Positions 18,823-35,208 of a stretch of 64,000 nt of DNA are shown here, piece by piece. Both the position numbers and the translations under genes were made by a program. Positions within the stretch are counted from its first letter, which is position 1, and each line of letters begins with the position of its first letter. Source of the stretch: a virus; the IMG/VR virus record IMGVR_UViG_3300045988_123818; one strand, 5' to 3'. The notes under the pieces are model-generated. The model worked only from the letters and a program-made list of their open reading frames with translations. It was not told where the DNA came from and did not search any database.

Positions 18823-21800
18823 TTAATCAATCTTATCCAAATCTTCTACAGCCTCCTGTATTATCATCTCAATATTCTTATTCGCGAAGTCCACCTGCTT
18901 CTTATCATCGGCCCACTTCTTTCTCATCGTGTTCCAATGGCGCATTCGCTTTTCCGCATTCTTGATGATATTCACCTTTCTTTGCTCAGGTGAGCCTTCG
19001 AACTTTTCCAATGCAGCAGCATTTTCAATCCTCTTCATCGTAGGCACGTTCTTCGATTTCAGCTTGTCGTTATTGGCGATAGTCTGTTCCATTTCCTCCT
19101 TGTAGTTATACCATTTGGCTTTGGTTCTCGCCATGCTCGACTGTTCTCTTGGAGTATAGAAGAGTGAGCGCAAGAATGGCACATCGCCCACTTCTATCTC
19201 GTCTGTCTTGCCAGTCGTTGCCTTTGCACCCAAGCCTGCAGTGCGTTGAGTAAATGTGCCCATACCGCCACTCCACGAACCGAAGAAATGATTGAGCATC
19301 GACGGGTCCGTTGCCCAGTCAAGAACCTCGTTGCCCTTCATTTCCGGATTACCAGGAGCTATATTGTTTGTCTTGGCGTTCACCCACTTGTTCAAGTCCA
19401 CAAGTCTTGCCGGAACATTATTATAGGCGTTCTGCCATGCCGGGTTAAGCTCTGTCTTATCGCCCGTTCGTCTTATCGGCGCACCCTTCCAGTCGTTGTT
19501 AAGCCACCATTCAATGAACGGAACTATAGCAGTAGGAGCAATACCTTCTGTAGTCATGCCAACTCCGTTTTCCAAGCTCTTTTCATAGTTCGGATTATTC
19601 AAGAAGTCCACCACCGGGAATAGCTGCGACATACATCCCACGGCATCCATAGCCATGTTTCGCTGGCTCTTCACATTCTGGGCAAATGTTTGTCCTGCTG
19701 CCAAGTCGCCAAGACTATAGAATGCTCTCAGCTCAATAGCCAACGGCACTGTCACAAATTTGTTATTGCCCACATATATACACAGGTTGTTTCTCCTGAT
19801 ATAGTCTGGTAACTCGCCATACGGGTCTTTCACGTTGCCTCTGTCCTTCTCGTCCTCATTCTGTATAATAGCATTGTTGACAGCAGCCATAATCAACGCT
19901 AAGGCAAACGGTGCAGATGTCATAGCAACAGTAGTACCCACAGGCGCACGCTTGATATTCTTTAACAGCAGGTTCGTACTCTGAATGCCAGCATTAAAGA
20001 ACATCGAGTAGTTTCTTAGGTAGCCTGCCACAAAGCCGTATGTGTTTCGCCTTGCCTTCTGCCAATCACCCATTTCTCCGTTCTTGAAGCTCTTTATAGC
20101 ATCACCCGAACCATGACGGTTGAAGTTTGTCGATACCTCCTTTGCGTCATACGCGCTTCTTGCTGCCGAACGTCCCAAGTCTCTTGATGTGCAATATGTG
20201 GCGAAGCGTGCCATATTCTCAGCCACCTCGTTCAAGCTCTCAACGTTCTCGCCCAATTTCTTAAGCAGTTCCACAGCATTAACCACAACCTTCTTCGCGC
20301 CCTTTGCCGACTCCTTTTCCACAATACTCTTGTAGCTCTTCTCCATGTCGTGCATCGAGAACAACTGAACAAAACCTGTCTCGCCGCCGTTCTCCATGAA
20401 CTCCTTGAAGTATCGCTCCATCTTCGAGTTGCCAAGCGTGCCCTCTCTGTATCGGGCATACAGTCCGAAGCCTACACCATTCTTGAAGTCTTTCATCTTC
20501 ATGCTCTTCAATCTTCCTGCGCCCTCATTGTAGAACACATTCAGCGGATTAAGCTCACCATAATAGCGTGCCCATTTCTTAGCATATCTTCCACCTTCCT
20601 TTGCCCTCACATGCGAAGATGCAAATTCCGCGTCTCTCACGATGTTTCTCATTACAAACTCCGGACTCCACGATGTTGAGGCCATAGCCATCCATCGTGT
20701 CACAGTCTGCAACCACTTTTGGCTTGCCTTGCCGTTCTCCAGCATTCCGTTCAAAGCCTGTGCCGCTCTCGGATTGCCAAGCACCACAAATCTGTGTGTT
20801 CGTCCTGCTATCTTCACGTCCACAAAGTGTTGGCTCTTGTCCTTCGCTCTTTGGAACTTGAAGCCGATGTCCGTGCTGTTGCTCAGACTCTTTGCCTCGC
20901 CCTTAGCTTGCTTGGCCCTCATGTCCGTTTCAAAGGCATCCACAATTTCTGCAACTTCATCAGCTTCGGCTCCTTCGGGAATCTTCGGATAAGCCTCCTC
21001 CCAAATGTCGTTACCGTTTCTGTCTGTGCCTATTTTTTCTACCCAAACCTTTGTCTCCTTCACAAGATTCTGCTCTCCGCTGTTTCTCACGAATCGCGCA
21101 AAGGCTTGCTTTATAGTGTTCTGCCCTCCGTTTCTTATCGCACGGTTGCCCATCAAGCCTATCTGTGCCAATATCTCCACATTGCTCAGACTCTTTCGTC
21201 CCTTGGCGTTCATCAGCGTCGTACCGATATAGTTGCTTGGGTCGCCCATTTCTGTCACATATCCGTATACGTCCTCAGCGGTAGCCTCGTCAAACTTTCT
21301 CAACGGTACATACCAGTCGAACATGCCCAATACTCCGTCATGTGTAATTTGACTTATCAGTCCACTCTCGTAGTCCGAATTTACAGAATAATCAGTAGCT
21401 GCCTTCACCTTCTTCCAGAAGTCGGCAACTGAGCCTTTCTTCATGCTTTCCATGCTCGCCTCCTGGTTCATTACCTCGTCAATAGCTCCGGCATCATCGT
21501 ATGGTGCTTTCTTGTCTGCAATACCCTGCAAGCCGTGCATACCCGAATAGTCATGCTCCTCAGCCTTGAAGTCCTTGTCCAAGTTCTTTACAATCCACTC
21601 GTCCATCTGACGGTAGTACTCTTTCAAGTCTATCTGTCCCGAGTCAAGCTTCTTTCTAAGGTCGTATTTTTCGCCCTTCCAAGCAGTCTCCAAAGCATCA
21701 ATACTATCGGATTCTTCACTCTTCACTTTTCGTTCTTCCCTTATCCAGTCTCTCACGAACAGCACACGGTTTCTCTCCAATCCATGCTTTCTAATCATAT

Positions 21801-24800
21801 ACAGATTGAAGTTCCTTATTCTGTCCTCCACCTTCTTGCCGTCGAAGCTGTCCAACACGCTCGACATAGCCTTGTCAAGCGGCTCCATATAGTGTATTTC
21901 GAAGAGCTTGGATTTGTCGCTCATCTTGCCCTCCGTGATATTTTGCATCAGATATGGATTCATCGAGCTTGCCACATCTTCAATCTTCCTGATAGACGGA
22001 TCAATAGCCTCCATCAGTTTCTTCAACGAGAGCATATTGTCCATGAAAGCCTCCGTAGCCATATAGCTATGACGGTCCAGGGCATGATGGTATCTGTCCA
22101 AAGCGGTAGCAGCACTTGGAGCCGTGCGGTAGTGTATCTCTCCGTCCGTTGTCTCCAGCCATTCCTCGCGACTCATGTTCTCGAAGTCATGGCTCTTGCC
22201 GTCGTTGTCATACAGCTCGCCGCCCTCAATCTTCGTGTACTCCGTCTTCTCATGCTCTATCTTCCACCTCACAGCCTCAGCTCTCAGCTTCCACAGCGGA
22301 CTGTCTCCATGCTTCTGCACGTTCTTCGCAAGCCACAGCATATACTTCACGTCCTTCACGTTAGGCGAAACTCTGTAGCCTATCTCATGCAGGGCATCTG
22401 TCACCTTATTCTTAATGTAGTTCCAGAATCCCGGCTCACCCTTTCCGTCCTCTGCGCTCTTGGCGATAAACTCTTCAATAGCGTCATAGAATCCAAGGTG
22501 ATTCATGTTCATCTTTTCCTTCACATAAGCTCTCAGCTCAGCATTGATAGGGTTGTCCAAGTCCATCCAAAGGTCTCTCATGTAGGAGTCAAACTTATCT
22601 CCAAGCAGTCCTCTCATACCCTTGTGTCCTACAGTCTCGTGCCAAACGGTTTTCTCCGCGGTATACGTGTCATGGATGTTCGGCATATACAGATGCACCT
22701 CGCCCGTCTTCTCGTCATACCAGCCAGTCACCTGCTTGCCGCTCTCTATATCCTTGCGCACCTTCGGGTTCTCAATCTCCTCAACCGAGTTCACCATCTT
22801 CACCTTGCCTCCAGTTCTCTTGGCAACCTTCTCCACGGTCTTGATGATACGCTCGCTCATAGCATTCGAAGCCCCTGAAGTCTTCTCAGGTGTTACAACA
22901 CCCTTGTCGTAGCTCCACCCATTCTCGTCAACATCAGCCATAGCTGCATCGTCTATAGTCTTGTTGAAGTCTTCAAGAATATCCTCAATGGCTTTATCCA
23001 TCTTGCTCTTGTCCGAAACCTCAAAGAGTTTCTTCACAGCGTCCTTCACACGTTCCCACACGCTTCGGTCTCCCTTGCGCATAAGCTCCTTTGCGAAGTT
23101 CACCACTCTGTCCATCACTCCAAGGTCAAGTGCTTTTCTCTGACGTGGGTCTGCCATCTGTGCTGCAAACTCATACTCGTCCTCAAGTCCATAGTTATTC
23201 TCTCTAAACTTCTCTTGGTTCCCAACGGCACGGTCGTATATCTCCGATATTGTCTCAACTGCCTCTATCTGTTTTTGGGTGAGCATACCGTCTGCCTTGC
23301 CGCTCTTCACAAGATGAATGGCTCCGTTCACACCCTCATGTATCATTTCATGAAGAATGGTCACAGGTAACTCTACCTTAGAAGAAGATGTTTTTACAAG
23401 TCCGTCAATAGAATATCTTATATCGCGTTCAGGCGAAGCGTAGCCCATTGGACTTGTCAGTTTGCCACTATTTATTTCATCCTGTACACCAAAGTCTACA
23501 CCAAGGCGTTTTAGCACATCGCGTGTTTGGGCAAACAGTTTTCCGAGTTCTGGGGAGGTGTTAGACTGTCTAAATATCTTTTCAACCTCTCCAAATCCGA
23601 TTTCACTTCCGGCTGACAATCCGTAAGTGTTTCTGAGATTTTCTGCTCTAACTCGTCTATAGTCAAGTTCTCTATTGATTGCAGCCAAGGCAATTCTGTC
23701 TTGTGCTTTATTTCTATGTCCTTGAAGCGTAGTCTTATTATCCGCATTAACGGACGCGAGTCTTCCAGTTCCCGCTCTCTCCGAATCTTCGCCTGTATTG
23801 CTTTCCTTTCTTCTGAGTTCATTTTCTAATTGTTTCTTTTGGTTCTCTAATACTGATTTTCGATAACGGGAAGCAAGGAAAATCTTATCTGAAACAGCTT
23901 GCATAAATTCTTCTTTGCTGTCAAAATCACTCTCTACCTCCCCAATCTCTTCATCAAACTTCTTCTCAATTCCCTCCGATGTCTTCTTGTCAACATCTTC
24001 CGGCACAACACGGCCATCGCGCTGTCCTTTCGAACCGCCCTTCGCCTTGTTATACACCTCAGCAGCGTGCTCCACTCTGTACATCACACTCTTGCCCTCG
24101 TACTTCTTCTTCAAGTATCGCTGCATTTCCTCCTCGGTCATGCCTGCCAACTTGCAAGTCAGTTTCTTTAGCTCCGCAATCACAGCCTGGCTCGTCTCGT
24201 TTCTTGTCTGACGCTCCTGTTGCTCAAAGGTCTCGTACGTGATGCCAAGGAATTTCTTCTTCTGCTCGGCACTATAACCCTCCATATCAAACGGAATAGA
24301 GTAGTCCTTCCAATCGCCTCTGACACGCACGTTGATGCCACCCTCGTTAAAGTCTACCCGCACGTTCTTCAACTCCTCCAAGTCCTTAACCGTCTGCTTA
24401 CTCTTCTTCATCATTATCGCATTGGTGTCGATAATGCGGTCGGGCATTTCCACGTCGCGCAAATCCTCGAAGAAGTCCTCTATCTTGTCGTAGTGACCGC
24501 CCAAGTCCCACTTCTCGGGATGGCCAGCCTTTGCTCGCATAGCCTCGTTGCTTATCTTGTCCACCACCACAACACGGCATACTACCTTCGTACCTGCCTG
24601 TTCGAACACGATGTCGGGCAGCTCCACCTCCGCACGTAGCACGGCGGTCTTCTCGCCCTCAATCCACTTGTCAAACTTCTTGTCCGTTGATCCTCTCGGT
24701 ATGAGAGCCACCACCCGACCGCCTTCTTCCAAGTGTTTAAATGCCTTACCCAAGTGAGCAATGGCTGTTGCTCCAGCCGTGCCGAACGGTGGGTTCATCA

Positions 24801-27800
24801 CCACCACGTCGTGCTTGTTGCTGATGTCGTAGTTCTCGAATATGGTGTTCACGAACTTTCGTCCCAAGCCTCCTGCCTTCAACTGCAACTTGGTGAACAG
24901 ACTCTGGCTCGGCTCAATGGCTGTCATTCGGTTGCCCTTTGGCACATATCGCGCAATGGCTCCATGTCCTGCGCTCGGTTCCATTGCCGTGTCGCCTTCG
25001 CCCATGTTCGCCCATTCCACCATCTTGTAGCCCAATGGTTCCGGGGTAGGGAAGTAGTCCACGCCCTCACGGTTGCGCGAGTTAAGCTTCTGGTTGGAGT
25101 AGTAGTCAAGCACAGCGTCATCGTATGGGTCGGCGTTCTGCTCCTTTGGCGCGTCAAACTCCTTGCCGCCAACGCCCTGCTGCTCAATTGGCACAACTCC
25201 GCTATGCTCCAGTATGCCCTTGGCGAAACTGTCTCTCAAGCTTCGCGCCTTACTGCCAAGCGCAAGGTTCTCCGTCGTCGATACCTGGTTGTTGAACTTC
25301 TCGCCGAACAGCATCATTTCTGAGTTCAGTCCCAATATCGGGTACTCAAATATGGCGTTGCTCTTGTTGCCGATACGGTAGGTGCGTCCCTCTATCTGCA
25401 AGACTGTGATAGGGCTTTGTGGCAGAGCCAATGTTATGCACACTCGCTGATGCTCGCCCGTCTTGTCATGCAGCGAGATTCCCTCCTTGCCGCTCGCCTC
25501 CTGAATCACGATGATGTTCTTGCCGCTGTTGTCGTCGTTGAAGGTGTCCACGGCCTTGTCCTTCACCTTTGAGCTTTCCTTGCCACTAAAGAACAGCACG
25601 TTGTCCTTGCCGAACACCTTGGCTATCTGCTCTCTTGGCATACTGTAGTCCAATGTCTGCTCCCACTTCAACAAGTCGGCATACTTCCGGCTGAAAGCTC
25701 TAACAGCCTGTATCGCCTCGTTCTTTGCTTCGCCTGGCTTCATAAGTGAGATAGAGTAATTAGCTCTATCCAACATCAAGGCGAACGGCGGCTTTATAGG
25801 TTCCTTTGTCTCCACTCTTCGGTGGAATATCACGACCTTGCGTCCTGCGTCCAAATGGGCCTTTATGCGCTCGATAATGTTAGCCACCTTCATAGTCTCA
25901 AACAGCGCGCTACCATAAGTATAGTCGCCTATCGTCTTACGGTAAGCGTCTGCCAGCACTCCGTGTCCTCTTACGGCATCCTGCACAGCTTGGTTGAACT
26001 GCTCCGCATGGTCGGGCGATACCGTCGGGAAGTCTCTTGAATAGTCATACGGACTGTCTATAATGCGTCCGCTCATGGTTCCCAACGTGTCTAGCAGATA
26101 GTCAGAGAAGGCTATCTCCTGCTTGGCTACAGCTTCGGGATTACTCGTGCTCTGCTCCAGTCTGCCATAACGGAACTTGTATGCAGCGCCAAAATGGTCA
26201 AGATAGAACTGTGTGCGCCCGCTCATTCTTCCGCCCTTTTCTTCTTCGGGATATTTGAAAATGTATCCCTCCGCATAGTCAAGGTTCTCGCGTGTATTGA
26301 ACGGTGTGGCTGAAAGGAAGATAGTCTTTGTGTCCTTCCATTCGCTTTTTGCCTGCGCCTCAAGCTTAGGCATCACCTCATTTATGTAATGACTAAAAGC
26401 CTTCTTGAATTCGCTGTGTATCTCTCCAAGCTTCGGGAAACTGGCATAATCTCCAGGAGTAAAGTTTATTATCTCCTTCGGTAATGCTTTACTTGTAGCG
26501 TATGATATGTCACGTGCCGTTGCGCTCGGATGGCTCGCTTTGTATTCGTCCTGTATACGTTTTACTTCTTTATCGCGCTCAGCGTTAAACTGCTCGCTAA
26601 GGCTCTTCATCTTCTGATAGTCTGCATTCGTCTCTTGTAGCCTAAGGAAGCAATGATTCTCGCTTCTGTTCGTCATCATGTAGTGCTGCATACTACGTGC
26701 TGTCTCCGCACCATTCTTGTTTTCCATGATACGGTGACTCTCGTCGTATATCACAGCATCCCACTTGGTTTCCAGCAGCTTCTTGTTCACTCCGAAGTTG
26801 GCGAATGTGGTGATCACCACGCCCTCGCCGCTTTCCGTCGTAGCCGTTGTGCCACGCTCCTTGGCTATGCTGTCAAGGTCGCGAATCTCCATGTTCAGAT
26901 TGCGTCCGTCCTTTATCCAGTCGCTCACCTTCTTCTGGCTCGGTGTCACAATAAGTATTCGTCCCTTGCCCTGCTTCACAAGTCGCTTCGCAATGCCAAG
27001 TCCCGTGAATGTCTTGCCCGTACCCGTGCCGTTGGTGAACATGTAGCCCTTGCCATAGGCGTGCTCTCTGTCCGCATGTTCCTTGCCGAAGAACTGTGTC
27101 TCTGCTTTCAGTACGTCCTCCTGCTGCTGAGGCAGAAGATAGGGTAGGGTCTCCTCGATGTTCTTCTTGTCGCCTATCTTCACCTTGATAGGCTCGGCCT
27201 CCATCTGTCTCTGATACTTATCGTTCAGAGGCTCTGAAAGCTTGTTTCTCAGCTTCTCGTTTCCGTGGATGCCTGCCCATTCGCCGATGGTATGGGTCTC
27301 ACCGTCCATCTGGTAAGGAGTGTTCCAATAGTCTTCGATGAATCTGTCAACATCATCATCGCTGAGGCCTATCATCTTCAACTCCTCGCCTTCCTCGGCG
27401 CGCATAGCTGCCTTCCACTCGTTGAACTTGTAGATACCTTCCTTTATTTTCAGCACAGCTCCATTAAGGTGCATCTTGAACAACTCGGGGAGCATTTCTA
27501 TCTGCTCGGGCGAAAGGTTCAGCTTCTTGAAGGGAGTCAAGGCTATCTTCACATATCCTTGTCCTGCCTTCTTCCATCTTTCCCAAAAGTCCTTTTTCTT
27601 CTGCTCGTATTCGGCGCGCTCCTGTTTTAGTCGCTCAGATGTACTATCTGGGAAATGAGTTCCTTGCTTGGTTGCAGGCTTCCGTCCTGCATTCGGGTCA
27701 AGAGGTCCATTGCCGCCGCCTTGTCCTCCTCGCTTAGGTACATTTCCCTCATTGCCAGCTCCACCGCCTCCTCGGGTGTCAGTACTTCCGGCAGATACGG

Positions 27801-30800
27801 CATCCATTCCGGGTGTATTTCCTTCACCTTTGTCAACGCGCGGTTTTCCAGTAGATACAGGAGTGTCGTTCTCACCGCCCGTTCCGCTCTCTCGCTCTCC
27901 GGGTGTAGTTCGTTCGCCGTCTGTTCTATCCACTGGTCCATCAGGTCCTCCGCCTTCTCGTCCTCGTCCCAATCCCAATTCTTGGCTGCCTCCAGTATTG
28001 GGAGCATCCAACTGTGTTCCGTCTTTTGTTCCGCTATTGTCGGGAACATTCTCATGTCTACTTCTAACATCGTTCCAAATTTTAAAGTAAGAAATTGCGT
28101 TAATTATATTGCCCTTGTCGCCACGCAAGTATGCGAGTGCGGCAGGTATCAACTCTTTGTTCTCCTCAGAAGTCAGCTCGTTTATCTCTGTTTCCGTAAG
28201 AGGATTCTTCGATGATACGGCTTCTCGTTCCTCCAAGTCCATCTGTTCCCAAGGCTTGTCTATCTTCTCGGCTTCTGCCTTGCCTACTTCCTCGCCAAGA
28301 ATCTTTCCTATCTCTCGACCGATAATCCTGCGTCGCTCCACCAAGCCAATACCGTTTCCTCTCAGCTTGGTTTCCATCGCCTGTTTCATCTTCTCTGTAG
28401 CACGCTTTATATCAGAAGCGTCGCCACTCTCCTTTGCCTTCGCCAGTTCCTCCTTAGCCTTCTGCACCTGCTCGTCCTTATACATTTCTGCAGTATGCGC
28501 CAACCAAGCCAACGGATTTGTCTTCGAAGGTTCCTCCTTTGTCTTCTCACCCTTCGGGTCTATAGCGTCTTTTATATCGCCCTTCGGTGTTACAACACTA
28601 TCGGATTTTTCACTTTTCTCTTTTCCCTTTTCACTCTCCCTCTTGACAGCCTTGTCTACTTCTCGCTGTCCTTCTGCTGGTTCGTTTCCTCCTGGTGCTT
28701 GCGGTTCAGTTCCCTCAGAGCTGCCAGCATCGCCATTTCCTTCTTTGCTTGAATGTCTTGTTTCATAGTCTTTCCAATTTCTAAGTTTTAAAAATTCGTT
28801 TACAAAATCTTCCTTTGTAGGCCTCTCGCCAAACATTTCCGCCTGACTGGCATCCGCATAATGAGCTGCATTACGGTTATATGCCATCATCAGCTCACGG
28901 AAGTCCTCAACCTTACCCTCCAGAGCAAGAGCGATAGCCTGAGATATAGGGTCAAATCTGTCCGCAGCGTTCTCGCCAAACATAGCAGGAGTGCGCAAGT
29001 ATGCGTCCACACCGCTTCCGCCTTGACGAGCTTCATATACCAACTGCACAGCCTTGTCTATCTCCTTCATCAGAGCATAGTCGCCAAGTTTCATGTTGTC
29101 TGTCACAGCACGGATGCCATTCAGAGCCTTTGTCTTAAGCATTCCGTCAACGCCCATCATACGGATAGTGTTTTCTGAGAACACGCTGCCAAGCAACAGA
29201 TTCTTCACGAAGTCCTTGCCTGCTGCCGAGAGCTTGTCTTCACTCTCACGCAATCCGGCTACCTCGTTCAGACCAATCACGCCCTTATCTATTAAACGCT
29301 TTAGCAACGAGTTTATTGCTGTAGGATTGTTAAAGAATGCATCAAGATTACCGCTTCCCTCTATCTCTGATATAATAGTGCCTATCTCGTCTGCAGAAAG
29401 CTTCTTCGAGTTCGCCACTGCTTGCTGTGTATTGCCCTGTGTCTTCTTCTCGTTCTTGTTGAACTTGGCGAAGGTTGCCGTGTCATACTTCATCGGCTCG
29501 TCACTCACAAGAACAAGGCGCGGATGCTTTATTCCGCTCTGCTCAATCTGCTCTGCGGTGAAGCCGTAATTCTCTGCATTCTCCTTCAATGCTTCAAGAT
29601 AAGCACTGTCGGTACCGTTCTTTGCTGCCTTCTGTCCCGCCATCGTTCTGCCGTTACCGTCAACAACAATGCCGTCAGATGTCACAACCGGAACCTGGTC
29701 TACTGCCTGTCCGTCATACTTCATGGCTATCATATCAGTTACCAGCTGAGCCTGCTTGTCATTCTCATAGTCACGGTCATTGATAGTCCTGCCTTCTTCG
29801 TTCACGGGGAAACCATCACTCTTCTTATATCCGTCGTTGGCATTATGCGAAGGTGTCAGACTGTCTGCTTCAACAATCTCATAGTGTCCTCTTAGCTTGC
29901 TTCCGTCAGCCAATGTACGTGTACGCTTGTTGCCCACAATACGCTTACCGCTTTCAAACTTCTCACGAACAGCGCCTAAATTACCTGCTTCACTTACCGA
30001 ACCTTCTTCACCTGCACTACCTACCTTCTCCATTCCAGCCTTAACCTTATTCGCGGTCATTACCTTCTTGATATTGGTATATAGCTCCAGTTCTGCTTTG
30101 GCGGCATCAACCGCCTTCGTCTTCTGAGCCTCAGCTTCCTTGGCGTCGTTCAAGTCGCCCGTGTAATCCACCTTTATTTTTTCGGCTTCTTTCAGCATCT
30201 TCTCGGCTCTCTTTATCTGTCCGTCTACAGCAGCTTCTGCGTTCTCGCCAAACTGCGAAGACATCCACTCCGCTCCATGTTCGGGTGTCATTTGCGAGTA
30301 GTCAGCAGTCTCACGGCCTTTCGTGTCCTTCATCATCGGCACAGGTGACCCATCGGCAAATGTTAAAGTCTCGTTACTTCCATTGCCATTATCGGATGGA
30401 TTATTTTTTTCTCCTTCCCCTATAGGCTTTACATCTTCAACTCCAGGCGCCGACGCACCCTCCTTCGGTGTTACAACACTCTCAGTCTTAGTATCGGATT
30501 TTTCACTTTTCTCTTTTCCCTTTTCACTCTCAGCGTAAGCCACCGAGTTCTTCTCCTCCAACATCGTCTGATAGTTCTTGGCATAGTCCTCCGTCTTTTC
30601 CACATGGTCAAGCTGCACGTCCTTCTTGCTCACGAAGTCCATCTCCTTTGTATTCGGGTCAAGCACGCTAAGCATGTCGCCAACGCTTTCTCTCGCTCTA
30701 CCCTCATTATCAAAGGCAACATCGCCCGCTCCAACAATAAGTACTCTGCCATTGTTGTCCTTCACAAACAACATCTGGCCGCCATCCTGCTTCTCGCCGT

Positions 30801-33735
30801 TCAGCTCGCCCTTATAGCTCCATTGCTCCACATGCTTCTGCACGGTCTCAGCAATCTTCTGTTCAGTTCCGCGATACATGCCCACAGCCTTAGCCTTGGC
30901 GTTGATGTAGTCGGCAAAAGGTGCAAGCTGTTCCTGCGTCAGTCCCGAGTTTATCAGCTCCATGTATATCTGAGGTTCCGAAAGACCTTCCTTTGTCAGT
31001 CTCTCATACTCCTGCTTCAACACATCGTTGCTTTCCAAGGCTGCATTAAACGCCTTTTCGGCATTATTCATGTTGTTCAGCACCTCAGCCACAGCCTCGT
31101 TGTTAGGATTCTCCGTGCCAAGGTTATTCTCCTCAACCACGTCCTTGCCCTCTGTCTGCGACTGGTCGGGATGCAACGTTCCTTCCGGGAACTGCTCTCC
31201 CTCATAAGCCTTTCTCAGAGCCACACAAGCGTTCTGTTCTCCCTCGCTGCGCTTCAACGGGTCTTTATCCATAGCTGCCTTCAACTGTTCAGCAGTAAAG
31301 CCAAACGTTTCGGCTACAGTCTCCAAGGTTTCTTGCGCCACCTTCTCGTCCTTTATCTGAGCTGCACCATAGGCATTACCCAAACGTTGGTTTTCGCGTC
31401 TCAGTCTGAGTGAGTAAACTACAGAGTCTCGTTCGTCTTCAGTTTTGACGATATGTTCTGACAATAGCTCTCCATATTTACTATACTCGCTTACAGTGCC
31501 TCCTCCATAACCAATATACTCCATCATAGGACGTGACGAAGGAACCGTTCCCATAACCAAAGCAGAGAACTTAGCCTTTGTGTCCCAAGGTATTGTATTG
31601 TCTGCCATTATCTCATCATAGGCAGTCTTCACAAATTCAGCGTCCGTATCCTTATACGACTCCTCACCTTTCCCTTTGGCTGCGGTCTTCTTTGCTCGCA
31701 TCGCCCAAGATGTCAGACTTTCTTTTCTCGTCAGCGGATTGTCGTGTACGTCATATCCGTAGACAGACTCCTTGCGCTTCGGTGCAGACGCGCTTCCGAA
31801 CAGCTGTTCTTTCTCCTCATTAGTGAAAGTATATCCACCAAAGGCTGCTCTCTGTCCGTCAGATGTCATAAGGTTTTTAATGTTTCTCGCCACCATGTCA
31901 AGATAGCTTTCCTTCTTGCCATCCTTCGCATAACGCTTAGGCAGTCTTGCATGTGTCAGCTTCAAGGCTACAACATTGGCGCAAGCCTCAAGGTTTCCCT
32001 CTACGCTCAGCCAATCTGTATCATGTCCCTCTATCATCTTGGCAACATTACCACCCATGTGCATACCAACGCCTTCCATAGCCAACTGGAACACCTTGGC
32101 AGGAATACGCTTCACGCCACTCACATTATAGATTCCTGCACCTACAGCACCGCCAATGCCGCCCATAGTAGCCCAGCTTGCGCCCTCAGAAAGACCGCCC
32201 ATAGTCATAAGCTTCACGGTATTGCCAATAGAAGTATCATCGCCAGTAGAGTAGTTCTGCACGGCTGCATTCGTCGAACCGTACAGCACACCCGTCACGC
32301 CTTGACTCACAGCACCCGTTGCAGCCATTCTGACGATACGACCGCGCAATGACGTGTTCGCTATTCTTGCTGCCTGGGCTACTCCGTTACCCATAACCTT
32401 GCCTGCCACGGCTGCACCAGCCTTTCCTAATGCGCCAAACACAGGAGCGTCTGCAGCAAAGCTCAATGTTCCGCGTGCAACTCTCGCACCCATACCCGGC
32501 TTAACATAAGGATTTTCCCCGTTATCGGTCATAGCCATGCCTTGCTGAGCATACTGTCTCTGCTTCTTTGACATCATGCCCATCGACAAGATAGTGCCTA
32601 TCATCGAGTCGTTGACACCACGGATGATATATTCTGCCGTACTCTTAGGCATATTACGGCTCAATTCGCTCTTCTCAAACTCCTCAGCTATCTTTGCTTG
32701 CAAGCCAGGAGCTATATAATTCTTTACATAATCCTCTGGGTCGATACCTAACGAAGCTGCCTTTTCTACTATTTCCTTCTGCATCTTCGGGTCAGAGAAC
32801 AACCCAGCCATGTCTTTCTCGGCATTCTTGCTGAGCTGATTCATTAGCTTGTCAGGATCAAGGGCTTCATTGTAAGCCTTTCCTGCTGCCATATATGCAA
32901 ATGGAGAAGCCTTGCTCAAAGCATCTTCTGCTGCAACACCTTTAACTGTCGCATCCTTAAACATCTTTTGGATACTATTGTTTATATATCCGCCAAGCTG
33001 TTTGTCAACAAGCTGTCTGCTGCTTTCTTCCAACTCATCCTCCAACTGTCCCCTTGTCTTCACAAGGTTATTGTTCACGTCCTCGTTCCCAAGGTCAAAG
33101 GCAGGAGCATTCCTTCGTCTTATCTCACCCTCAGCATTTCTACCAGCCTCTTGTCCAGCCTGTTCCATTCTACGCTCCAGTGACTTCTGTGCTCTTCTCA
33201 CACCGCCTACCATCTGTTTTACAGCACCCGGCTTTGTATAGTCTATAGGCATCTGCTCTTCATCGCGTCTTTTCGAGGCGTCAGCCTCCCTAAGACCCTT
33301 CACAAGCTCACTCTCCTTACCCACAGACACAGAAGGCGCAGCAGCGCCCCTATTCAAAGGCTTACCACCCATAGCAAAGCTATCGGATTCTTCACTCTTC
33401 ACTCTTCCCTCTTCACTTTCACCTCCCCACTTCTCTTGCGCTACCCGCTCCTGTGCGCGTCCCAATGCAGAACTATAGGATTTTTCACTTTTCCCTTTTA
33501 CCTTTTCTCTTCTCACGGTTCTTCCCGTAAACAGATGAGCACCAAAGTCACCAACACGACTCGCATCCTTTACGCTCACATCGCCTCTTCGCCCTGTCTT
33601 TCGGTCTATCACCTCCATTCGAGCACCAGGAAATGCTTTTGCAAATCCCATCGGGTCCTTGTCATACGCTGTCTTGTCTACCGTATGCCTGTTACCTTTC
33701 GCATCCTTGAAATAATAATATCTATTGTCTGCCAT
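18823..33735 (-). CDS. giant polyvalent protein (4970 aa): Gly-zipper region, ParB-like, SNF2/DExH helicase, N6-adenine MTase, two HExxH zincins, C-terminal TM module
   Basis: VVDGNGRTMA (about 29650). GTGTGKT (about 27020), DESH (about 26740) and QIEGRTYRIGN (about 25380). EPSAGHG (about 24970) and NPPFG (about 24785). HEMIHEG (about 23340) and HETVGH (about 22625). The TM segment SAPFALALIMAAV (about 19900). Confidence 0.9.
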   Translation of the reverse strand: MADNRYYYFKDAKGNRHTVDKTAYDKDPMGFAKAFPGARMEVIDRKTGRRGDVSVKDASRVGDFGAHLFTGRTVRREKVKGKSEKSYSSALGRAQERVAQEKWGGESEEGRVKSEESDSFAMGGKPLNRGAAAPSVSVGKESELVKGLREADASKRRDEEQMPIDYTKPGAVKQMVGGVRRAQKSLERRMEQAGQEAGRNAEGEIRRRNAPAFDLGNEDVNNNLVKTRGQLEDELEESSRQLVDKQLGGYINNSIQKMFKDATVKGVAAEDALSKASPFAYMAAGKAYNEALDPDKLMNQLSKNAEKDMAGLFSDPKMQKEIVEKAASLGIDPEDYVKNYIAPGLQAKIAEEFEKSELSRNMPKSTAEYIIRGVNDSMIGTILSMGMMSKKQRQYAQQGMAMTDNGENPYVKPGMGARVARGTLSFAADAPVFGALGKAGAAVAGKVMGNGVAQAARIANTSLRGRIVRMAATGAVSQGVTGVLYGSTNAAVQNYSTGDDTSIGNTVKLMTMGGLSEGASWATMGGIGGAVGAGIYNVSGVKRIPAKVFQLAMEGVGMHMGGNVAKMIEGHDTDWLSVEGNLEACANVVALKLTHARLPKRYAKDGKKESYLDMVARNIKNLMTSDGQRAAFGGYTFTNEEKEQLFGSASAPKRKESVYGYDVHDNPLTRKESLTSWAMRAKKTAAKGKGEESYKDTDAEFVKTAYDEIMADNTIPWDTKAKFSALVMGTVPSSRPMMEYIGYGGGTVSEYSKYGELLSEHIVKTEDERDSVVYSLRLRRENQRLGNAYGAAQIKDEKVAQETLETVAETFGFTAEQLKAAMDKDPLKRSEGEQNACVALRKAYEGEQFPEGTLHPDQSQTEGKDVVEENNLGTENPNNEAVAEVLNNMNNAEKAFNAALESNDVLKQEYERLTKEGLSEPQIYMELINSGLTQEQLAPFADYINAKAKAVGMYRGTEQKIAETVQKHVEQWSYKGELNGEKQDGGQMLFVKDNNGRVLIVGAGDVAFDNEGRARESVGDMLSVLDPNTKEMDFVSKKDVQLDHVEKTEDYAKNYQTMLEEKNSVAYAESEKGKEKSEKSDTKTESVVTPKEGASAPGVEDVKPIGEGEKNNPSDNGNGSNETLTFADGSPVPMMKDTKGRETADYSQMTPEHGAEWMSSQFGENAEAAVDGQIKRAEKMLKEAEKIKVDYTGDLNDAKEAEAQKTKAVDAAKAELELYTNIKKVMTANKVKAGMEKVGSAGEEGSVSEAGNLGAVREKFESGKRIVGNKRTRTLADGSKLRGHYEIVEADSLTPSHNANDGYKKSDGFPVNEEGRTINDRDYENDKQAQLVTDMIAMKYDGQAVDQVPVVTSDGIVVDGNGRTMAGQKAAKNGTDSAYLEALKENAENYGFTAEQIEQSGIKHPRLVLVSDEPMKYDTATFAKFNKNEKKTQGNTQQAVANSKKLSADEIGTIISEIEGSGNLDAFFNNPTAINSLLKRLIDKGVIGLNEVAGLRESEDKLSAAGKDFVKNLLLGSVFSENTIRMMGVDGMLKTKALNGIRAVTDNMKLGDYALMKEIDKAVQLVYEARQGGSGVDAYLRTPAMFGENAADRFDPISQAIALALEGKVEDFRELMMAYNRNAAHYADASQAEMFGERPTKEDFVNEFLKLRNWKDYETRHSSKEGNGDAGSSEGTEPQAPGGNEPAEGQREVDKAVKRESEKGKEKSEKSDSVVTPKGDIKDAIDPKGEKTKEEPSKTNPLAWLAHTAEMYKDEQVQKAKEELAKAKESGDASDIKRATEKMKQAMETKLRGNGIGLVERRRIIGREIGKILGEEVGKAEAEKIDKPWEQMDLEEREAVSSKNPLTETEINELTSEENKELIPAALAYLRGDKGNIINAISYFKIWNDVRSRHENVPDNSGTKDGTQLDAPNTGGSQELGLGRGREGGGPDGPVDRTDGERTTPGERESGTGGENDTPVSTGKPRVDKGEGNTPGMDAVSAGSTDTRGGGGAGNEGNVPKRGGQGGGNGPLDPNAGRKPATKQGTHFPDSTSERLKQERAEYEQKKKDFWERWKKAGQGYVKIALTPFKKLNLSPEQIEMLPELFKMHLNGAVLKIKEGIYKFNEWKAAMRAEEGEELKMIGLSDDDVDRFIEDYWNTPYQMDGETHTIGEWAGIHGNEKLRNKLSEPLNDKYQRQMEAEPIKVKIGDKKNIEETLPYLLPQQQEDVLKAETQFFGKEHADREHAYGKGYMFTNGTGTGKTFTGLGIAKRLVKQGKGRILIVTPSQKKVSDWIKDGRNLNMEIRDLDSIAKERGTTATTESGEGVVITTFANFGVNKKLLETKWDAVIYDESHRIMENKNGAETARSMQHYMMTNRSENHCFLRLQETNADYQKMKSLSEQFNAERDKEVKRIQDEYKASHPSATARDISYATSKALPKEIINFTPGDYASFPKLGEIHSEFKKAFSHYINEVMPKLEAQAKSEWKDTKTIFLSATPFNTRENLDYAEGYIFKYPEEEKGGRMSGRTQFYLDHFGAAYKFRYGRLEQSTSNPEAVAKQEIAFSDYLLDTLGTMSGRIIDSPYDYSRDFPTVSPDHAEQFNQAVQDAVRGHGVLADAYRKTIGDYTYGSALFETMKVANIIERIKAHLDAGRKVVIFHRRVETKEPIKPPFALMLDRANYSISLMKPGEAKNEAIQAVRAFSRKYADLLKWEQTLDYSMPREQIAKVFGKDNVLFFSGKESSKVKDKAVDTFNDDNSGKNIIVIQEASGKEGISLHDKTGEHQRVCITLALPQSPITVLQIEGRTYRIGNKSNAIFEYPILGLNSEMMLFGEKFNNQVSTTENLALGSKARSLRDSFAKGILEHSGVVPIEQQGVGGKEFDAPKEQNADPYDDAVLDYYSNQKLNSRNREGVDYFPTPEPLGYKMVEWANMGEGDTAMEPSAGHGAIARYVPKGNRMTAIEPSQSLFTKLQLKAGGLGRKFVNTIFENYDISNKHDVVVMNPPFGTAGATAIAHLGKAFKHLEEGGRVVALIPRGSTDKKFDKWIEGEKTAVLRAEVELPDIVFEQAGTKVVCRVVVVDKISNEAMRAKAGHPEKWDLGGHYDKIEDFFEDLRDVEMPDRIIDTNAIMMKKSKQTVKDLEELKNVRVDFNEGGINVRVRGDWKDYSIPFDMEGYSAEQKKKFLGITYETFEQQERQTRNETSQAVIAELKKLTCKLAGMTEEEMQRYLKKKYEGKSVMYRVEHAAEVYNKAKGGSKGQRDGRVVPEDVDKKTSEGIEKKFDEEIGEVESDFDSKEEFMQAVSDKIFLASRYRKSVLENQKKQLENELRRKESNTGEDSERAGTGRLASVNADNKTTLQGHRNKAQDRIALAAINRELDYRRVRAENLRNTYGLSAGSEIGFGEVEKIFRQSNTSPELGKLFAQTRDVLKRLGVDFGVQDEINSGKLTSPMGYASPERDIRYSIDGLVKTSSSKVELPVTILHEMIHEGVNGAIHLVKSGKADGMLTQKQIEAVETISEIYDRAVGNQEKFRENNYGLEDEYEFAAQMADPRQRKALDLGVMDRVVNFAKELMRKGDRSVWERVKDAVKKLFEVSDKSKMDKAIEDILEDFNKTIDDAAMADVDENGWSYDKGVVTPEKTSGASNAMSERIIKTVEKVAKRTGGKVKMVNSVEEIENPKVRKDIESGKQVTGWYDEKTGEVHLYMPNIHDTYTAEKTVWHETVGHKGMRGLLGDKFDSYMRDLWMDLDNPINAELRAYVKEKMNMNHLGFYDAIEEFIAKSAEDGKGEPGFWNYIKNKVTDALHEIGYRVSPNVKDVKYMLWLAKNVQKHGDSPLWKLRAEAVRWKIEHEKTEYTKIEGGELYDNDGKSHDFENMSREEWLETTDGEIHYRTAPSAATALDRYHHALDRHSYMATEAFMDNMLSLKKLMEAIDPSIRKIEDVASSMNPYLMQNITEGKMSDKSKLFEIHYMEPLDKAMSSVLDSFDGKKVEDRIRNFNLYMIRKHGLERNRVLFVRDWIREERKVKSEESDSIDALETAWKGEKYDLRKKLDSGQIDLKEYYRQMDEWIVKNLDKDFKAEEHDYSGMHGLQGIADKKAPYDDAGAIDEVMNQEASMESMKKGSVADFWKKVKAATDYSVNSDYESGLISQITHDGVLGMFDWYVPLRKFDEATAEDVYGYVTEMGDPSNYIGTTLMNAKGRKSLSNVEILAQIGLMGNRAIRNGGQNTIKQAFARFVRNSGEQNLVKETKVWVEKIGTDRNGNDIWEEAYPKIPEGAEADEVAEIVDAFETDMRAKQAKGEAKSLSNSTDIGFKFQRAKDKSQHFVDVKIAGRTHRFVVLGNPRAAQALNGMLENGKASQKWLQTVTRWMAMASTSWSPEFVMRNIVRDAEFASSHVRAKEGGRYAKKWARYYGELNPLNVFYNEGAGRLKSMKMKDFKNGVGFGLYARYREGTLGNSKMERYFKEFMENGGETGFVQLFSMHDMEKSYKSIVEKESAKGAKKVVVNAVELLKKLGENVESLNEVAENMARFATYCTSRDLGRSAARSAYDAKEVSTNFNRHGSGDAIKSFKNGEMGDWQKARRNTYGFVAGYLRNYSMFFNAGIQSTNLLLKNIKRAPVGTTVAMTSAPFALALIMAAVNNAIIQNEDEKDRGNVKDPYGELPDYIRRNNLCIYVGNNKFVTVPLAIELRAFYSLGDLAAGQTFAQNVKSQRNMAMDAVGCMSQLFPVVDFLNNPNYEKSLENGVGMTTEGIAPTAIVPFIEWWLNNDWKGAPIRRTGDKTELNPAWQNAYNNVPARLVDLNKWVNAKTNNIAPGNPEMKGNEVLDWATDPSMLNHFFGSWSGGMGTFTQRTAGLGAKATTGKTDEIEVGDVPFLRSLFYTPREQSSMARTKAKWYNYKEEMEQTIANNDKLKSKNVPTMKRIENAAALEKFEGSPEQRKVNIIKNAEKRMRHWNTMRKKWADDKKQVDFANKNIEMIIQEAVEDLDKID

Positions 33736-33759: not shown

Positions 33760-35208
33760 CTACTTCACATACTGACTCCAGTTCGTTCCTTTACCAGTAG
33801 ATGTACCACCTTTGGCTTGTGCCTTCGGCTTACTGCCAGAGCCTTGCCATCTTATAGGGTTCGCGCCCTTGCGCTGTCCCCTAATCTGCTTGGCTTCACT
33901 CTTCGACACCCTCTTGGTCACATATCCAACCTTTCTGCCCGAAGTGTTCACGCCACGCTTGGCCTTGTCGCTCGTCCTGATGTCAGCATAGCCAAATCCG
34001 TCCCTGAACGTCTTTCTAAGCGACTCGCCACGGCTTGAAGCGTCAAGCAAGCCATAGCTAATGGCACTCTGAATAATCTTACTTGCTCGATCTGCACTTG
34101 GATTCACCATCTTGCCGTCACTTCCCTCATATCCATTCATAGCACGGTCGAGTTCACGCTGCTTCTGAGGAGTAATCATACCAAGATTACGCATTTCTGT
34201 CCAAGCCTGGGCTTCCTGCTGAGGCGTAAGCTGTTTCTTGCTTGCCAGTCTTCCGTATGGAGTGGCATATCCATAACCGCCTCCTACGCCGCCGCTGCTT
34301 CCCGAGCCTCCAGCCGCTTTTGCCATTGACAAAGCCAGTCTGCTCGCACTTAGTCTTTCAGTAGCCTTGTTGTGGCGTTTGGTTTCGCCTAACCTCTCAC
34401 CTGCCAACTTCAAGTTGCCTTCTTGTACCCCAAGCAAACCATCGCGATATGCCTTCAAGTCCTTAGCGTTCTGGTCTGCTCTCTTGTCAGCACTTTTCTT
34501 AAGCTCAACCATCTGCCCTTTATAAGCTCTGTCTGCATCTGCTGCATCCATCTTTATCTGCAAGTTGGCATTCTTATACGCAGCGTCAGCCTCAGCAGCA
34601 GCTTTTCTCGCACGTTCTGCCTTTCTCTTGTCAAGGTCTGCTTGCATCTCAGCAGTCGGATTATTAAACTTCTGTAGCGCAGCTCCCTTGGAAGTATTAT
34701 AGATGTTCCCCATGTGTCGTATTGCGTCAGCTAAAGTGGCTATGCGCATATTGTTTCTCGTCATGCGCTCGTCATAATCATCATCACTCTCGCCTTCACG
34801 CCTTCCTGGTCGCTTCTTCGACAATCCGCCAAGCCACTTAAAGAAACCACCATCCCTTTGACTATCGTCCTTCTCAAACACAGCAGTAACACCCTTATCA
34901 CCACCAACAGCACCCAAATCAACACCAACCAAAGGCTTAGAGTTAAGAGCGTAAGAGGATGGCATCCTTCCTTCCATGTCTCTCGGATTTGACGTCTGCC
35001 ACGATTGTTGAGCCTTACTGCCCTCAGTCACAGGTTCCCCGTTAGGTGACCATCCTACATTTACAGGCATATTCTCAAACGTAGTAGGTCGTTTACCACT
35101 AAACACATTAGCTGGTTGCTGAGGCTGTGCCAAAACACCAGGAGCCACAACACCAGGCTGTGTTACAACACCCTCCCTCTTCTCCTTATCGTCCAATACT
35201 GTGTTCAT
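33760..35208 (-). CDS. hypothetical protein (482 aa), Gly-rich with a coiled coil; candidate internal or ejection protein
   Basis: Long ORF immediately upstream of the giant gene in the same operon. Confidence 0.75.
   Translation of the reverse strand: MNTVLDDKEKREGVVTQPGVVAPGVLAQPQQPANVFSGKRPTTFENMPVNVGWSPNGEPVTEGSKAQQSWQTSNPRDMEGRMPSSYALNSKPLVGVDLGAVGGDKGVTAVFEKDDSQRDGGFFKWLGGLSKKRPGRREGESDDDYDERMTRNNMRIATLADAIRHMGNIYNTSKGAALQKFNNPTAEMQADLDKRKAERARKAAAEADAAYKNANLQIKMDAADADRAYKGQMVELKKSADKRADQNAKDLKAYRDGLLGVQEGNLKLAGERLGETKRHNKATERLSASRLALSMAKAAGGSGSSGGVGGGYGYATPYGRLASKKQLTPQQEAQAWTEMRNLGMITPQKQRELDRAMNGYEGSDGKMVNPSADRASKIIQSAISYGLLDASSRGESLRKTFRDGFGYADIRTSDKAKRGVNTSGRKVGYVTKRVSKSEAKQIRGQRKGANPIRWQGSGSKPKAQAKGGTSTGKGTNWSQYVK

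Follow-up and report, generated by a model that had tools for sequence, protein, structure and literature searches.

A putative 147-codon gene nested in the +1 frame of a giant DarB-like polyvalent phage gene

Introduction

Can one stretch of phage DNA serve, in two frames of the same strand, as a linker within a giant protein and as the gene of a separate folded protein? The question is raised by an open reading frame (ORF) of 147 codons in a 64,000-nucleotide stretch of viral DNA (IMG/VR record IMGVR_UViG_3300045988_123818), the whole of which is called the window here. The ORF lies inside a gene of almost five thousand codons that encodes a polyvalent, DarB-like protein, and is shifted by +1 relative to it. 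The initial annotation, made from the window sequence, had offered three explanations for this ORF, namely an overlapping (overprinted) gene, a captured foreign gene that is read through out of frame as a linker, and a frameshift-dependent alternative C-terminus that would end the N-terminal third of the giant protein. We compared the locus with its homologues and propose that two same-strand products are made from it, a linker of the giant protein and a separate 147-residue folded protein that is started internally. We assign this reading a probability of about 0.87.

Results

Position and composition of the nested ORF

The coordinates (27627-28070), the length and the translation of the ORF given in the initial annotation were reproduced exactly. 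The ORF is on the minus strand and in the +1 frame of the giant ORF, (33735-28070) mod 3 being 1. Between its flanking stops the +1 frame runs for 158 codons (28103..27630), the longest opening in an alternative sense frame of the giant gene; the runners-up have 114, 107 and 104 codons. The predicted product has a mass of 17.3 kDa and an isoelectric point (pI) of 4.44, with 33 acidic residues (D+E) versus 14 basic ones (K+R), five Trp and no Cys.

The +1 frame had been described as dominated by G-ending codons, and indeed 70 of the 147 codons end in G and only 7 in T. A related statement on glycine codons in the giant frame holds in part. The first 600 codons of the giant gene do use mostly GGT or GGC (50 of 70 Gly codons), but within the overlap Gly is encoded by GGA in 23 of 35 cases rather than almost always, compared with 32% GGA in the remaining gene. 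This bias can be attributed to the small frame, because the small protein is rich in Glu, and a giant-frame GGA with G or A after it supplies the small frame with GAG or GAA, both of which encode Glu.

The openness of the +1 frame is in itself weak evidence, because a +1 stop needs T at the second position of a giant codon, i.e. a codon for F, L, I, M or V. When the giant-frame peptide was held fixed and its synonymous codons were resampled, the +1 frame stayed open with P = 0.01-0.36, depending on the lineage. The caution expressed earlier, that an open frame might merely reflect composition, was hence well placed.

Selection acts on the nested frame

A search of 5.8 billion proteins returned 71 close relatives with identities from 100% down to 45%, nearly all of them called as ORFs of 147 residues. 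In their alignment Trp, Pro and Leu are invariant, replacements are conservative and insertions or deletions comprise whole codons only. A profile search of 1.84 billion cluster representatives extended the family to 101 clusters at 50% identity, almost all with a length of 120-155 residues. The +1 product, for which the initial annotation had considered a lack of homologues, thus belongs to a sizeable family.

A first-round sample of 45 homologous loci was assembled, mostly viral contigs of 37-86 kb, together with contigs from an isolate of Leyella stercorea and from metagenome-assembled genomes (MAGs) of Prevotella, Alistipes and Oscillospiraceae. None of the 45 has a giant-frame stop in the region, and in each the +1 ORF is uninterrupted, with its ATG at the same position. 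Both frames are free of stops in 18 of 18 nested lineages tested and in a fusion locus (L047, see below); the third sense frame has 11-18 stops.

Substitutions were counted by parsimony over 34 distinct sequences and assigned to the first, second and third position of the giant codons (G1/G2/G3), G1 being the wobble position of the small ORF. The counts were 438/347/885 in the upstream flank and 340/245/712 in the downstream flank, and 502/274/229 in the overlap. The giant wobble position is the most variable one in the flanks and the quietest of the three in the overlap, where the wobble position of the small ORF takes over as the peak. Suppression of synonymous change in the giant frame, which had been proposed as a check on the ORF, is therefore present in this interval. 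An alignment based on nucleotides only gave the same picture, with 491/260/224 in the overlap versus 362/292/778 and 294/209/609 in the flanks (chi-square 300, p ~1e-65). A sliding scan across 6.4 kb confined the switch in codon phase to 28098..27649, which matches the boundaries of the small ORF.

Ratios of nonsynonymous to synonymous differences per site (pN/pS, Nei-Gojobori) were 0.49 for the small frame in the overlap and 0.47 and 0.49 for the giant frame in the two flanks. For the giant frame in the overlap the ratio rose to 1.34-1.50, and out-of-frame controls gave 1.04-1.21. As judged from these comparisons, the nested frame is under purifying selection at the protein level, and the sequence of the small protein is what selection keeps here. 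The pattern recurs in lineages with identities down to ~26% and with a guanine plus cytosine (GC) content from 0.29 to 0.69.

Two antisense ORFs, 27655..28215 (+) with 186 residues and 27668..28090 (+) with 140 residues, also span the nested gene. The initial annotation had regarded both antisense frames as open. In the window this is true of the frame that has its third codon positions in common with the nested ORF, i.e. that of 27655..28215, which has no stop; the other has one, and in most homologues both are broken by stops. Periodicity alone cannot separate 27655..28215 from the nested ORF owing to the common third positions. An antisense gene as the source of the conservation was ruled out, since most other lineages have 1-4 stops in the antisense frames. 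In the window, the avoidance of T at the wobble positions of the small ORF leaves these ORFs open, and they are best seen as by-products of composition.

The giant frame reads the overlap as a hydrophilic linker

Over the overlap, the giant-frame tract contains 35 G, 15 T, 13 P, 13 D, 12 R and 10 E, with 14 hydrophobic residues in 148. This agrees with the G/R/E/T/P-rich composition noted before, Asp being equally frequent. The tract is a low-complexity linker as claimed, but it is not the only one in the giant protein, given that residues ~1651-1775 also contain fewer than 15% hydrophobic residues. This second tract (about 28411..28785, minus strand) is rich in Lys, Glu, Ser and Gly and lies ~110 residues upstream of the overlap. 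It showed neither a long alternative-frame ORF nor a codon-phase switch in the sliding scan, the alignment being gappy in parts there.

For the giant frame, the small protein was held fixed and its synonymous codons were resampled with the codon usage of the giant gene, the usage of one gene being applied to most lineages. Under these conditions 8-11 giant-frame stops are expected in each of 12 lineages and none is observed, the probability of an open frame being <1/3000; in four distant nested lineages 7-13 are expected and again none is found (P <=2e-4). The means by which stops are avoided is visible at the wobble positions of the small ORF, where T is never used before codons starting with AA, AG or GA (0 of 650) versus 92 of 1105 elsewhere. 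Openness does not account for the composition of the peptide. Given an open frame, 26-37 hydrophobic residues are expected versus 11-18 observed, and 10-14 aromatic or Cys residues versus 0-2 (P <=0.001 in 14 of 14 lineages for either class).

Because stops are avoided and hydrophobic residues are depleted beyond what openness requires, the giant frame is most likely translated through the overlap. On this evidence, the wobble positions of the small gene keep the giant frame stop-free and hydrophilic, and the giant-frame peptide appears free to drift in sequence as a disordered linker would be.

Family and predicted fold of the small protein

Structure prediction with AlphaFold2 gave a mean predicted local distance difference test score (pLDDT) of 78 and a predicted template modelling score (pTM) of 0.70 when 19 close sequences were supplied. 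With an alignment of 56 family members these values rose to 96.2 and 0.90, with all five models at 94.8 or above, and the resulting model is all-helical with nine helices. The nested product is thus predicted to be a real folded protein. Its sequence had no match above noise in Pfam, PHROGs, PADLOC or the PDB sequences, and Foldseek found no match for the model in the PDB or BFVD (best E = 0.96, template modelling score 0.22). Searches of annotated phages and plasmids with the window protein (tblastn) and DNA (blastn) did not return a match.

Initiation at the nested ATG

In 14 of 14 lineages the 'AT' of the nested ATG comes from a giant codon GAT or AAT, against the preference of the gene for GAC (222:94) and AAC (162:117). 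Relatives that stand free of any giant gene start at the same Met (ML[GE]I... or MYQ.P...). Each of the five giant codons upstream of the nested start is represented by one synonymous codon across related lineages of the Bacteroidota type, giving ...TATTTAAAAATTTACGACG directly before the ATG. Two codons that are rare in the gene are among those conserved in this leader: TTA accounts for 13 of 305 Leu codons, and AAA is used 83 times versus 373 for AAG. In the window the leader has a GC content of 0.28, and its 50-nucleotide folding energy falls at the 92nd percentile of the least-stable segments. Values for the region from -35 to +14 in ten lineages are similar (GC 0.28-0.38, 84th-98th percentile of the least structured). 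Such A/T-rich, unstructured leaders without a Shine-Dalgarno (SD) sequence are the usual initiation context in Bacteroidota.

In the phages of other hosts the signal differs. All three cultured proteobacterial phages examined have GAGG exactly 9 nucleotides before the nested ATG, even where the giant-frame peptide differs. Among 17 distinct high-GC loci, 12 carry GGAG, GAGG or AGGAG at a spacing of 6-9 nucleotides (background 9.8%, P = 3e-9), and none of 31 low-GC loci has an SD motif upstream of the nested ATG. In view of the conserved ATG, the AT-rich leader, the SD sequences in the high-GC phages and the common Met of the free-standing relatives, these sequence features indicate that the nested gene initiates independently at its own internal ATG, with the type of signal that its host uses.

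In 15 of the 18 loci listed, very distant ones included, a small-frame TAA precedes the nested ATG by exactly five codons (the equivalent position in the window is 28083..28085). It is made by the rare giant codons TTA and AAA (or AAC/ACA). The subclade of the window has TTT AAA instead of TTA AAA, with the small-frame stop 11-27 codons upstream. This TAA may either be selected itself or be a consequence of the AT-rich leader. A search by eye for a promoter of the Bacteroidota type (TAnnTTTG) upstream of the nested ATG gave only a near-match at the wrong spacing, TAAAATTTG, which is not conserved.

Nested and free-standing members among phages and bacteria

Among the family clusters sampled for their genomic context, the nested state occurs in eight deep lineages (the window clade, P0071, P0073, P0084, P0093, P0096, P0111 and P0145), with giant ORFs of up to 5,334 codons and with identities of the small protein to that of the window down to 26-28%. 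In five lineages (P0086, P0101, P0108, P0130 and P0131) the gene is free-standing, with 2-21 stops in the giant-like frame. One lineage (P0100, in locus L047) shows a decayed in-frame fusion. In this NCBI MAG contig (204..1232, 1233..1415) the small domain continues in frame into a homologue of the downstream giant domain, with one stop between the two. The giant-like frame is stop-free for 229 codons over the small domain, and no N-terminal part of a giant gene lies upstream. It seems that the locus derives from the nested arrangement by recent decay or rearrangement.

The free-standing member in L048 adjoins separate genes for a PBECR2-like nuclease (a near-threshold match), a nucleotidyltransferase of the Pol-beta type and a homologue of the giant-protein domain that precedes the overlap, the latter being a 214-residue gene product matched by the profile of that domain with E = 6e-15. 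This sequence context looks like an unfused set of polyvalent modules. BLASTP of the genes flanking free-standing members against the giant protein gave no significant match, and profiles detected only the 214-residue gene of L048 and the fragments in L047. Other neighbours of free-standing members are NERD, McrBC and type III restriction-like genes (L048, 2805..8036), a Dnd-like/DEAD/N6_N4 methylase cluster (L052, 1..7367), and ordinary chromosomal genes with a DNA methylase (L070). These sites may be defence islands or integrated mobile elements with anti-defence genes.

As an independent test, 80 viral loci were collected using only the conserved start of the helicase module that follows the overlap in the giant protein, i.e. 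irrespective of the small ORF. A hidden Markov model of the family matched just upstream in 79 of the 80 loci. In 78 the match is in the +1 frame, has no giant-frame stop inside and ends 29-983 nucleotides before the helicase block. Locus L146 has the nested arrangement plus one frame break downstream, and L123 has a divergent +1 ORF of ~135 codons over a low-complexity giant-frame tract; both fit as variants of the same arrangement. L146 is a high-GC viral contig in which the giant frame passes through the nested ORF and is then, at ~4900..5000, out of frame with the helicase block, which reflects either a single indel or assembly error or a giant gene that is genuinely split there.

The distance from the end of the nested ORF to the helicase block (L072-L151) has two main values, ~29-120 and ~416-590 nucleotides, with 983 nucleotides in a few loci. 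Hence some lineages have, between the nested ORF and the helicase block, a domain of ~130 residues (window residues ~2040-2216) that is missing from those in which the nested ORF ends 29-120 nucleotides before the block. This domain has a homologue in the downstream portion of distant nested loci. Giant genes without the small ORF were also sought by a protein search with the two flanking domains joined; all that came back were fragments of 176-489 residues produced by gene callers.

The feature tables of Serratia phage Parlo, Pseudomonas phage Skulduggery and Klebsiella phage vB_KpnP_ZX1 (ZX1) list the giant coding sequence alone, adjoining a virion structural gene and a lysis cassette. Each of these giant genes has a family member in its +1 frame (E = 1e-15 to 5e-14), the end of which lies just ahead of the helicase block; the nested ATG is at record position 53818 in Parlo, 49373 in ZX1 and 33577 in Skulduggery. 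With the small protein of Parlo as the tblastn query, a member was found in each of six distinct cultured phages with a complete module (Parlo, ZX1, Skulduggery, Ruegeria 45A6, Vibrio D274 and Vibrio 1.232.O), and in all six records only the giant gene is annotated under the match. Only searches with the helicase module or with the small protein of Parlo revealed these cultured relatives.

The assembly of Leyella stercorea strain An906 has the region twice on short contigs (L038 and L045; NZ_JADYTS010000143.1, ...129.1), in versions whose small proteins share 97% and 44% identity with that of the window. This suggests that two distinct phages of this type are associated with one Leyella (Prevotella) strain, and it hints at the group to which the host is likely to belong. 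In public gene calls the giant gene is broken up: in L001 (4236..9275) almost nothing is called over 5 kb of open giant frame, the C-terminal part is called as a product of 2008 residues, and P0176-P0184 are fragments. Giant genes of this class are thus poorly represented as full-length proteins. In L021, L034, L093, L094 and L112 a giant-frame stop occurs 1-2 kb downstream of the nested gene; these loci could be pseudogenes, assembly errors or natural splits.

The giant gene and its modules

The features of the locus are listed in Table 1. Residues 2180-3100 of the giant protein show 34-38% identity, over at least 90% of the 920 residues, to proteins of cultured phages. These are annotated as 'DarB-like antirestriction' in Parlo and Skulduggery, as 'PLxRFG protein' in ZX1 and as methylase or hypothetical in the Vibrio and Ruegeria phages. 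In Vibrio phage 1.232.O the region homologous to the part with the NPPF motif is annotated as N-6 adenine-specific DNA methylase. Judged by sequence, the giant gene is polyvalent and DarB-like, the likeness to DarB being one of annotation, set by the names given in Parlo and Skulduggery rather than by a comparison with P1 DarB. The window also carries portal, terminase, RecT-like and SbcC-like genes. Directly upstream of the giant gene lies an ORF of 482 residues (33760..35208, minus strand) that has no PHROG match. It occupies the same position in L001 (481-484 residues), and in Parlo and Skulduggery this position is held by an annotated 'virion structural protein'.

Table 1. Features of the nested gene and of the giant gene that contains it.
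Feature	Position	Strand	Description
Nested gene	27627..28070	-	147 codons plus TAA; +1 frame of the giant gene; from ORF and translation
Nested ATG start codon	28068..28070	-	Same position in 45/45 first-round loci
Leader of the nested gene	28071..28105	-	AT-rich, poorly structured, inside giant coding sequence; likely SD-less initiation region
Giant-frame reading of the overlap	27625..28071	-	Giant residues 1889-2037; hydrophilic Gly-rich linker, sequence not conserved; from translation and pN/pS
Giant polyvalent DarB-like gene	18823..33735	-	4,970 codons; Pfam ddrB-ParB, ResIII/SNF2, Helicase_C, LPD38
ddrB-like ParB domain	29539..29907	-	Residues 1277-1399; Pfam PF18763, E = 4e-14
Conserved domain upstream of the overlap	28051..28398	-	Residues ~1780-1895, ending ...AISYFKIWNDVR; conserved in homologues
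Conserved domain between overlap and helicase	27088..27618	-	Residues ~2040-2216; from alignments
SNF2/ResIII-type helicase module	25369..27087	-	Residues 2217-2789; Pfam; always directly downstream of the nested gene
NPPF motif	24784..24795	-	Residues 2981-2984; presumed N6-adenine methyltransferase catalytic motif; pattern only, no Pfam hit
LPD38 domain	19171..19827	-	Residues 4637-4855; Pfam PF18857, E = 9e-27

Discussion

Two products from one stretch

According to the model favoured here, ribosomes that translate the giant gene would read the overlap as a hydrophilic, disordered linker of ~150 residues, which would join the N-terminal third with its ParB-like region to the helicase-methyltransferase module. 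Other ribosomes would start at the internal ATG (28070) and translate the +1 frame into a separate acidic, all-helical protein of 147 residues that ends just before the helicase module. Of the explanations proposed initially, the overlapping gene is the one that agrees with the purifying selection on the +1 frame, the family of at least 101 clusters, the confidently predicted fold and the start signal of its own.

Several points weigh against this model and the function proposed below. The evidence that the nested product is translated consists of sequence comparison and a predicted structure. The homologue counts are not phylogenetically independent, with many loci stemming from one large gut dataset (IMG 3300045988). 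A recognisable SD sequence is absent in 5 of the 17 high-GC loci. The partner role discussed next draws on position and co-inheritance, since the small protein is without a match in Pfam, PHROGs, PADLOC, the PDB sequences and Foldseek. Finally, the order of events may have been the reverse of the one that we favour, as considered below.

Possible function

The small protein probably works together with the helicase-methyltransferase module and stays in the producer cell. We suggest this because its gene always lies directly before the helicase module and is inherited with it, by analogy with the small proteins of the P1 Dar system (see below), and because polyvalent proteins are viewed as being delivered and processed (PMC5512222). 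It would act in trans as a chaperone, as a packaging adaptor or, in the producer cell, as an inhibitor of a potentially harmful enzyme. If so, the nested position would ensure that the small protein and the module are never inherited or expressed apart.

A reasonable alternative is that the small protein is an independent acidic anti-defence effector. It may conceivably be a DNA mimic like the antirestriction proteins of the Ocr and ArdA type, which have strongly acidic surfaces: the small protein is acidic, no structural match to it was found, and such mimics share no common fold.

Which frame came first

The small gene is probably the older reading, onto which the linker was overlaid when polyvalent modules were fused, because it is the small frame that is folded, constrained in sequence and represented by free-standing relatives. 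This retains part of the second initial explanation, the captured gene read as a linker, in that the tract has the properties of a hydrophilic linker and free-standing relatives exist. A 'foreign' origin and the direction of evolution go beyond what the comparisons show, and the small gene has not been sacrificed to the linker but stays functional.

The opposite order, in which the linker existed first, the small ORF arose within it de novo by overprinting and the free copies are later escapes, appears less likely, although some observations speak for it. The nested members cover most of the diversity found in the family (26-100% identity). Moreover, nested and free members interleave in one subfamily (P0111 nested; P0086, P0101 and P0108 free), and transitions between the two states must therefore have happened more than once. 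It is at odds, however, with a small frame that is folded and constrained next to a giant frame that is disordered and unconstrained, and with the occurrence of the small protein where there is no giant gene at all (L070). In viral overprinting (reviewed in PMC8227390 and PMC3494269), the younger frame is reported to be generally the more disordered and the more narrowly distributed one.

Taken together, the proposal that the giant gene was built by reading through an older small gene, and that this gene encodes a protein of novel fold which is an obligatory trans partner of the module, is tentative and somewhat more doubtful than not.

Readings that involve frameshifting, splitting or no translation

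Two frameshift models appear very improbable, and to about the same degree. In the first, a shift of -1 near its end would fuse the small domain to the helicase module, the small ORF being the N-terminal part of a shorter isoform. The short distance of 29-120 nucleotides to the helicase block in many lineages and the common frame of the small and downstream domains in L047 would suit this model. However, the position of the stop codon is conserved, the L047 fusion is interrupted by a stop and looks decayed, and inspection by eye, without a systematic scan, revealed no slippery heptamer at the 3' end of the ORF in the window.

The second is the frameshift-dependent C-terminus of the initial annotation, which would arise by a programmed +1 (or -2) shift near the A-run just upstream of the nested ATG and end the N-terminal third of the giant protein. 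The proposed search for slippery sequences did yield a candidate: TTA AAA ATT in many lineages, or TTT AAA ATT in the window, would allow tRNA-Lys to re-pair one base downstream. The slip would land on the first small-frame codon after the TAA, and the codons involved are both rare in the gene and conserved at the leader. Yet the A-run is missing from the L001/L030 clade (TTA ACA GTT) and from L056 (TTA AAC GTA), and the leaders of the high-GC loci are unrelated. With a TAA five codons before the ATG in most lineages there is almost no room for a shift, and the nested ATG is universal, is preceded by a properly spaced SD sequence in hosts that use one, and coincides with the Met at which free-standing relatives begin. 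This explanation is thus not sustained, in contrast to internal initiation.

Still less probable is that the giant ORF is not read through and that the region separates two genes, the open giant frame being incidental. As this would predict, gene calls in public databases frequently break the giant gene at this point and list the small ORF by itself; against it stand the 7-13 giant-frame stops expected and the complete absence of stops in any nested lineage, when free-standing members carry 11-21, as well as the depletion of hydrophobic residues beyond what an open frame demands. The least probable reading, that the +1 ORF is untranslated and its openness and conservation are by-products of a hydrophobic-poor linker or of an antisense gene, can draw on the modest resampling probabilities of +1 openness and on the third positions common to 27655..28215 and the nested ORF, but it conflicts with the elevated giant-frame pN/pS in the overlap, by which the giant peptide is not the conserved entity, with the stops that the antisense frames carry in most lineages and the 11-21 stops in the other frame of free-standing members, with a pLDDT of 96 obtained from coevolution, and with a conserved ATG and host-appropriate initiation signals.

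Implications

If translated as proposed, a protein of 125-160 residues with a confidently predicted, unmatched fold resides inside the largest gene of many phages, among them cultured phages of Serratia, Klebsiella, Pseudomonas, Vibrio and Ruegeria; the GenBank records checked for cultured phages have no annotation for it. The same asymmetric dual coding would extend from phages of Bacteroidota to high-GC phages, with an initiation signal that changes with the host. The case suggests a way of building giant multi-module anti-defence proteins, in which an intervening gene is read through and yet retained, and it would add an unrecognised, probably essential component to DarB-like antirestriction systems. 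In practical terms, recoding or 'codon-optimising' the linker of such a giant gene would destroy the hidden gene.

Comparison with known systems

Nested +1 genes in phages and asymmetric overprinting in viruses are already known; this particular nested gene is not described in the literature that we found, the coverage of which was incomplete. A bacterial precedent is comS of Bacillus subtilis, a small ORF nested out of frame in the giant multi-module surfactin synthetase gene srfAB and co-expressed from its mRNA. ComS is a regulatory peptide of 46 residues, is found in one lineage and overlaps an enzymatically active domain, unlike the linker overlap seen here.

The Rz/Rz1 pair of phage lambda (PMC5295617, PMC6139136) is alike in that a complete +1 gene with its own start lies on the same strand inside another gene, with products thought to cooperate. 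Rz1 is a lipoprotein of ~60 residues inside a gene of 153 codons, and both frames are constrained in sequence. Here, 147 codons lie inside ~5,000, openness and hydrophilicity are the only constraints on the outer frame, and the proteins are unrelated to Rz and Rz1.

Overprinted pairs of the paramyxovirus P/C type (for overprinting in general, PMC8227390 and PMC3494269) resemble the present case in having one folded or conserved frame and one that is disordered or biased. There, the short or novel frame is usually the disordered one, whereas here it is the long host frame, and the short nested frame is predicted to be folded and has free-standing relatives.

Polyvalent proteins as described by Iyer et al. 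2017 (PMC5512222) likewise combine many unrelated domains in one huge phage protein encoded beside virion and lysis genes, and are viewed as entering the cell together with the DNA and then being processed into functional units. Overlapping genes, frameshifts and linkers are not mentioned in that paper. The nested gene would add to its description a component that is predicted to be translated separately from inside a polyvalent gene.

In the Dar system of phage P1 (PMC12810830), small proteins such as Hdf, DarA and DdrA accompany a giant antirestriction protein of the helicase-methyltransferase kind, which depends on them to be incorporated into the capsid. A functional analogy is plausible. 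The P1 genes are separate and do not overlap, and no sequence or structural similarity was found between the small protein and those of P1 Dar. Against the background of these systems, the sequence data point to an ancient and widely conserved nested gene in which the giant host, and not the small guest, holds the unconstrained frame.

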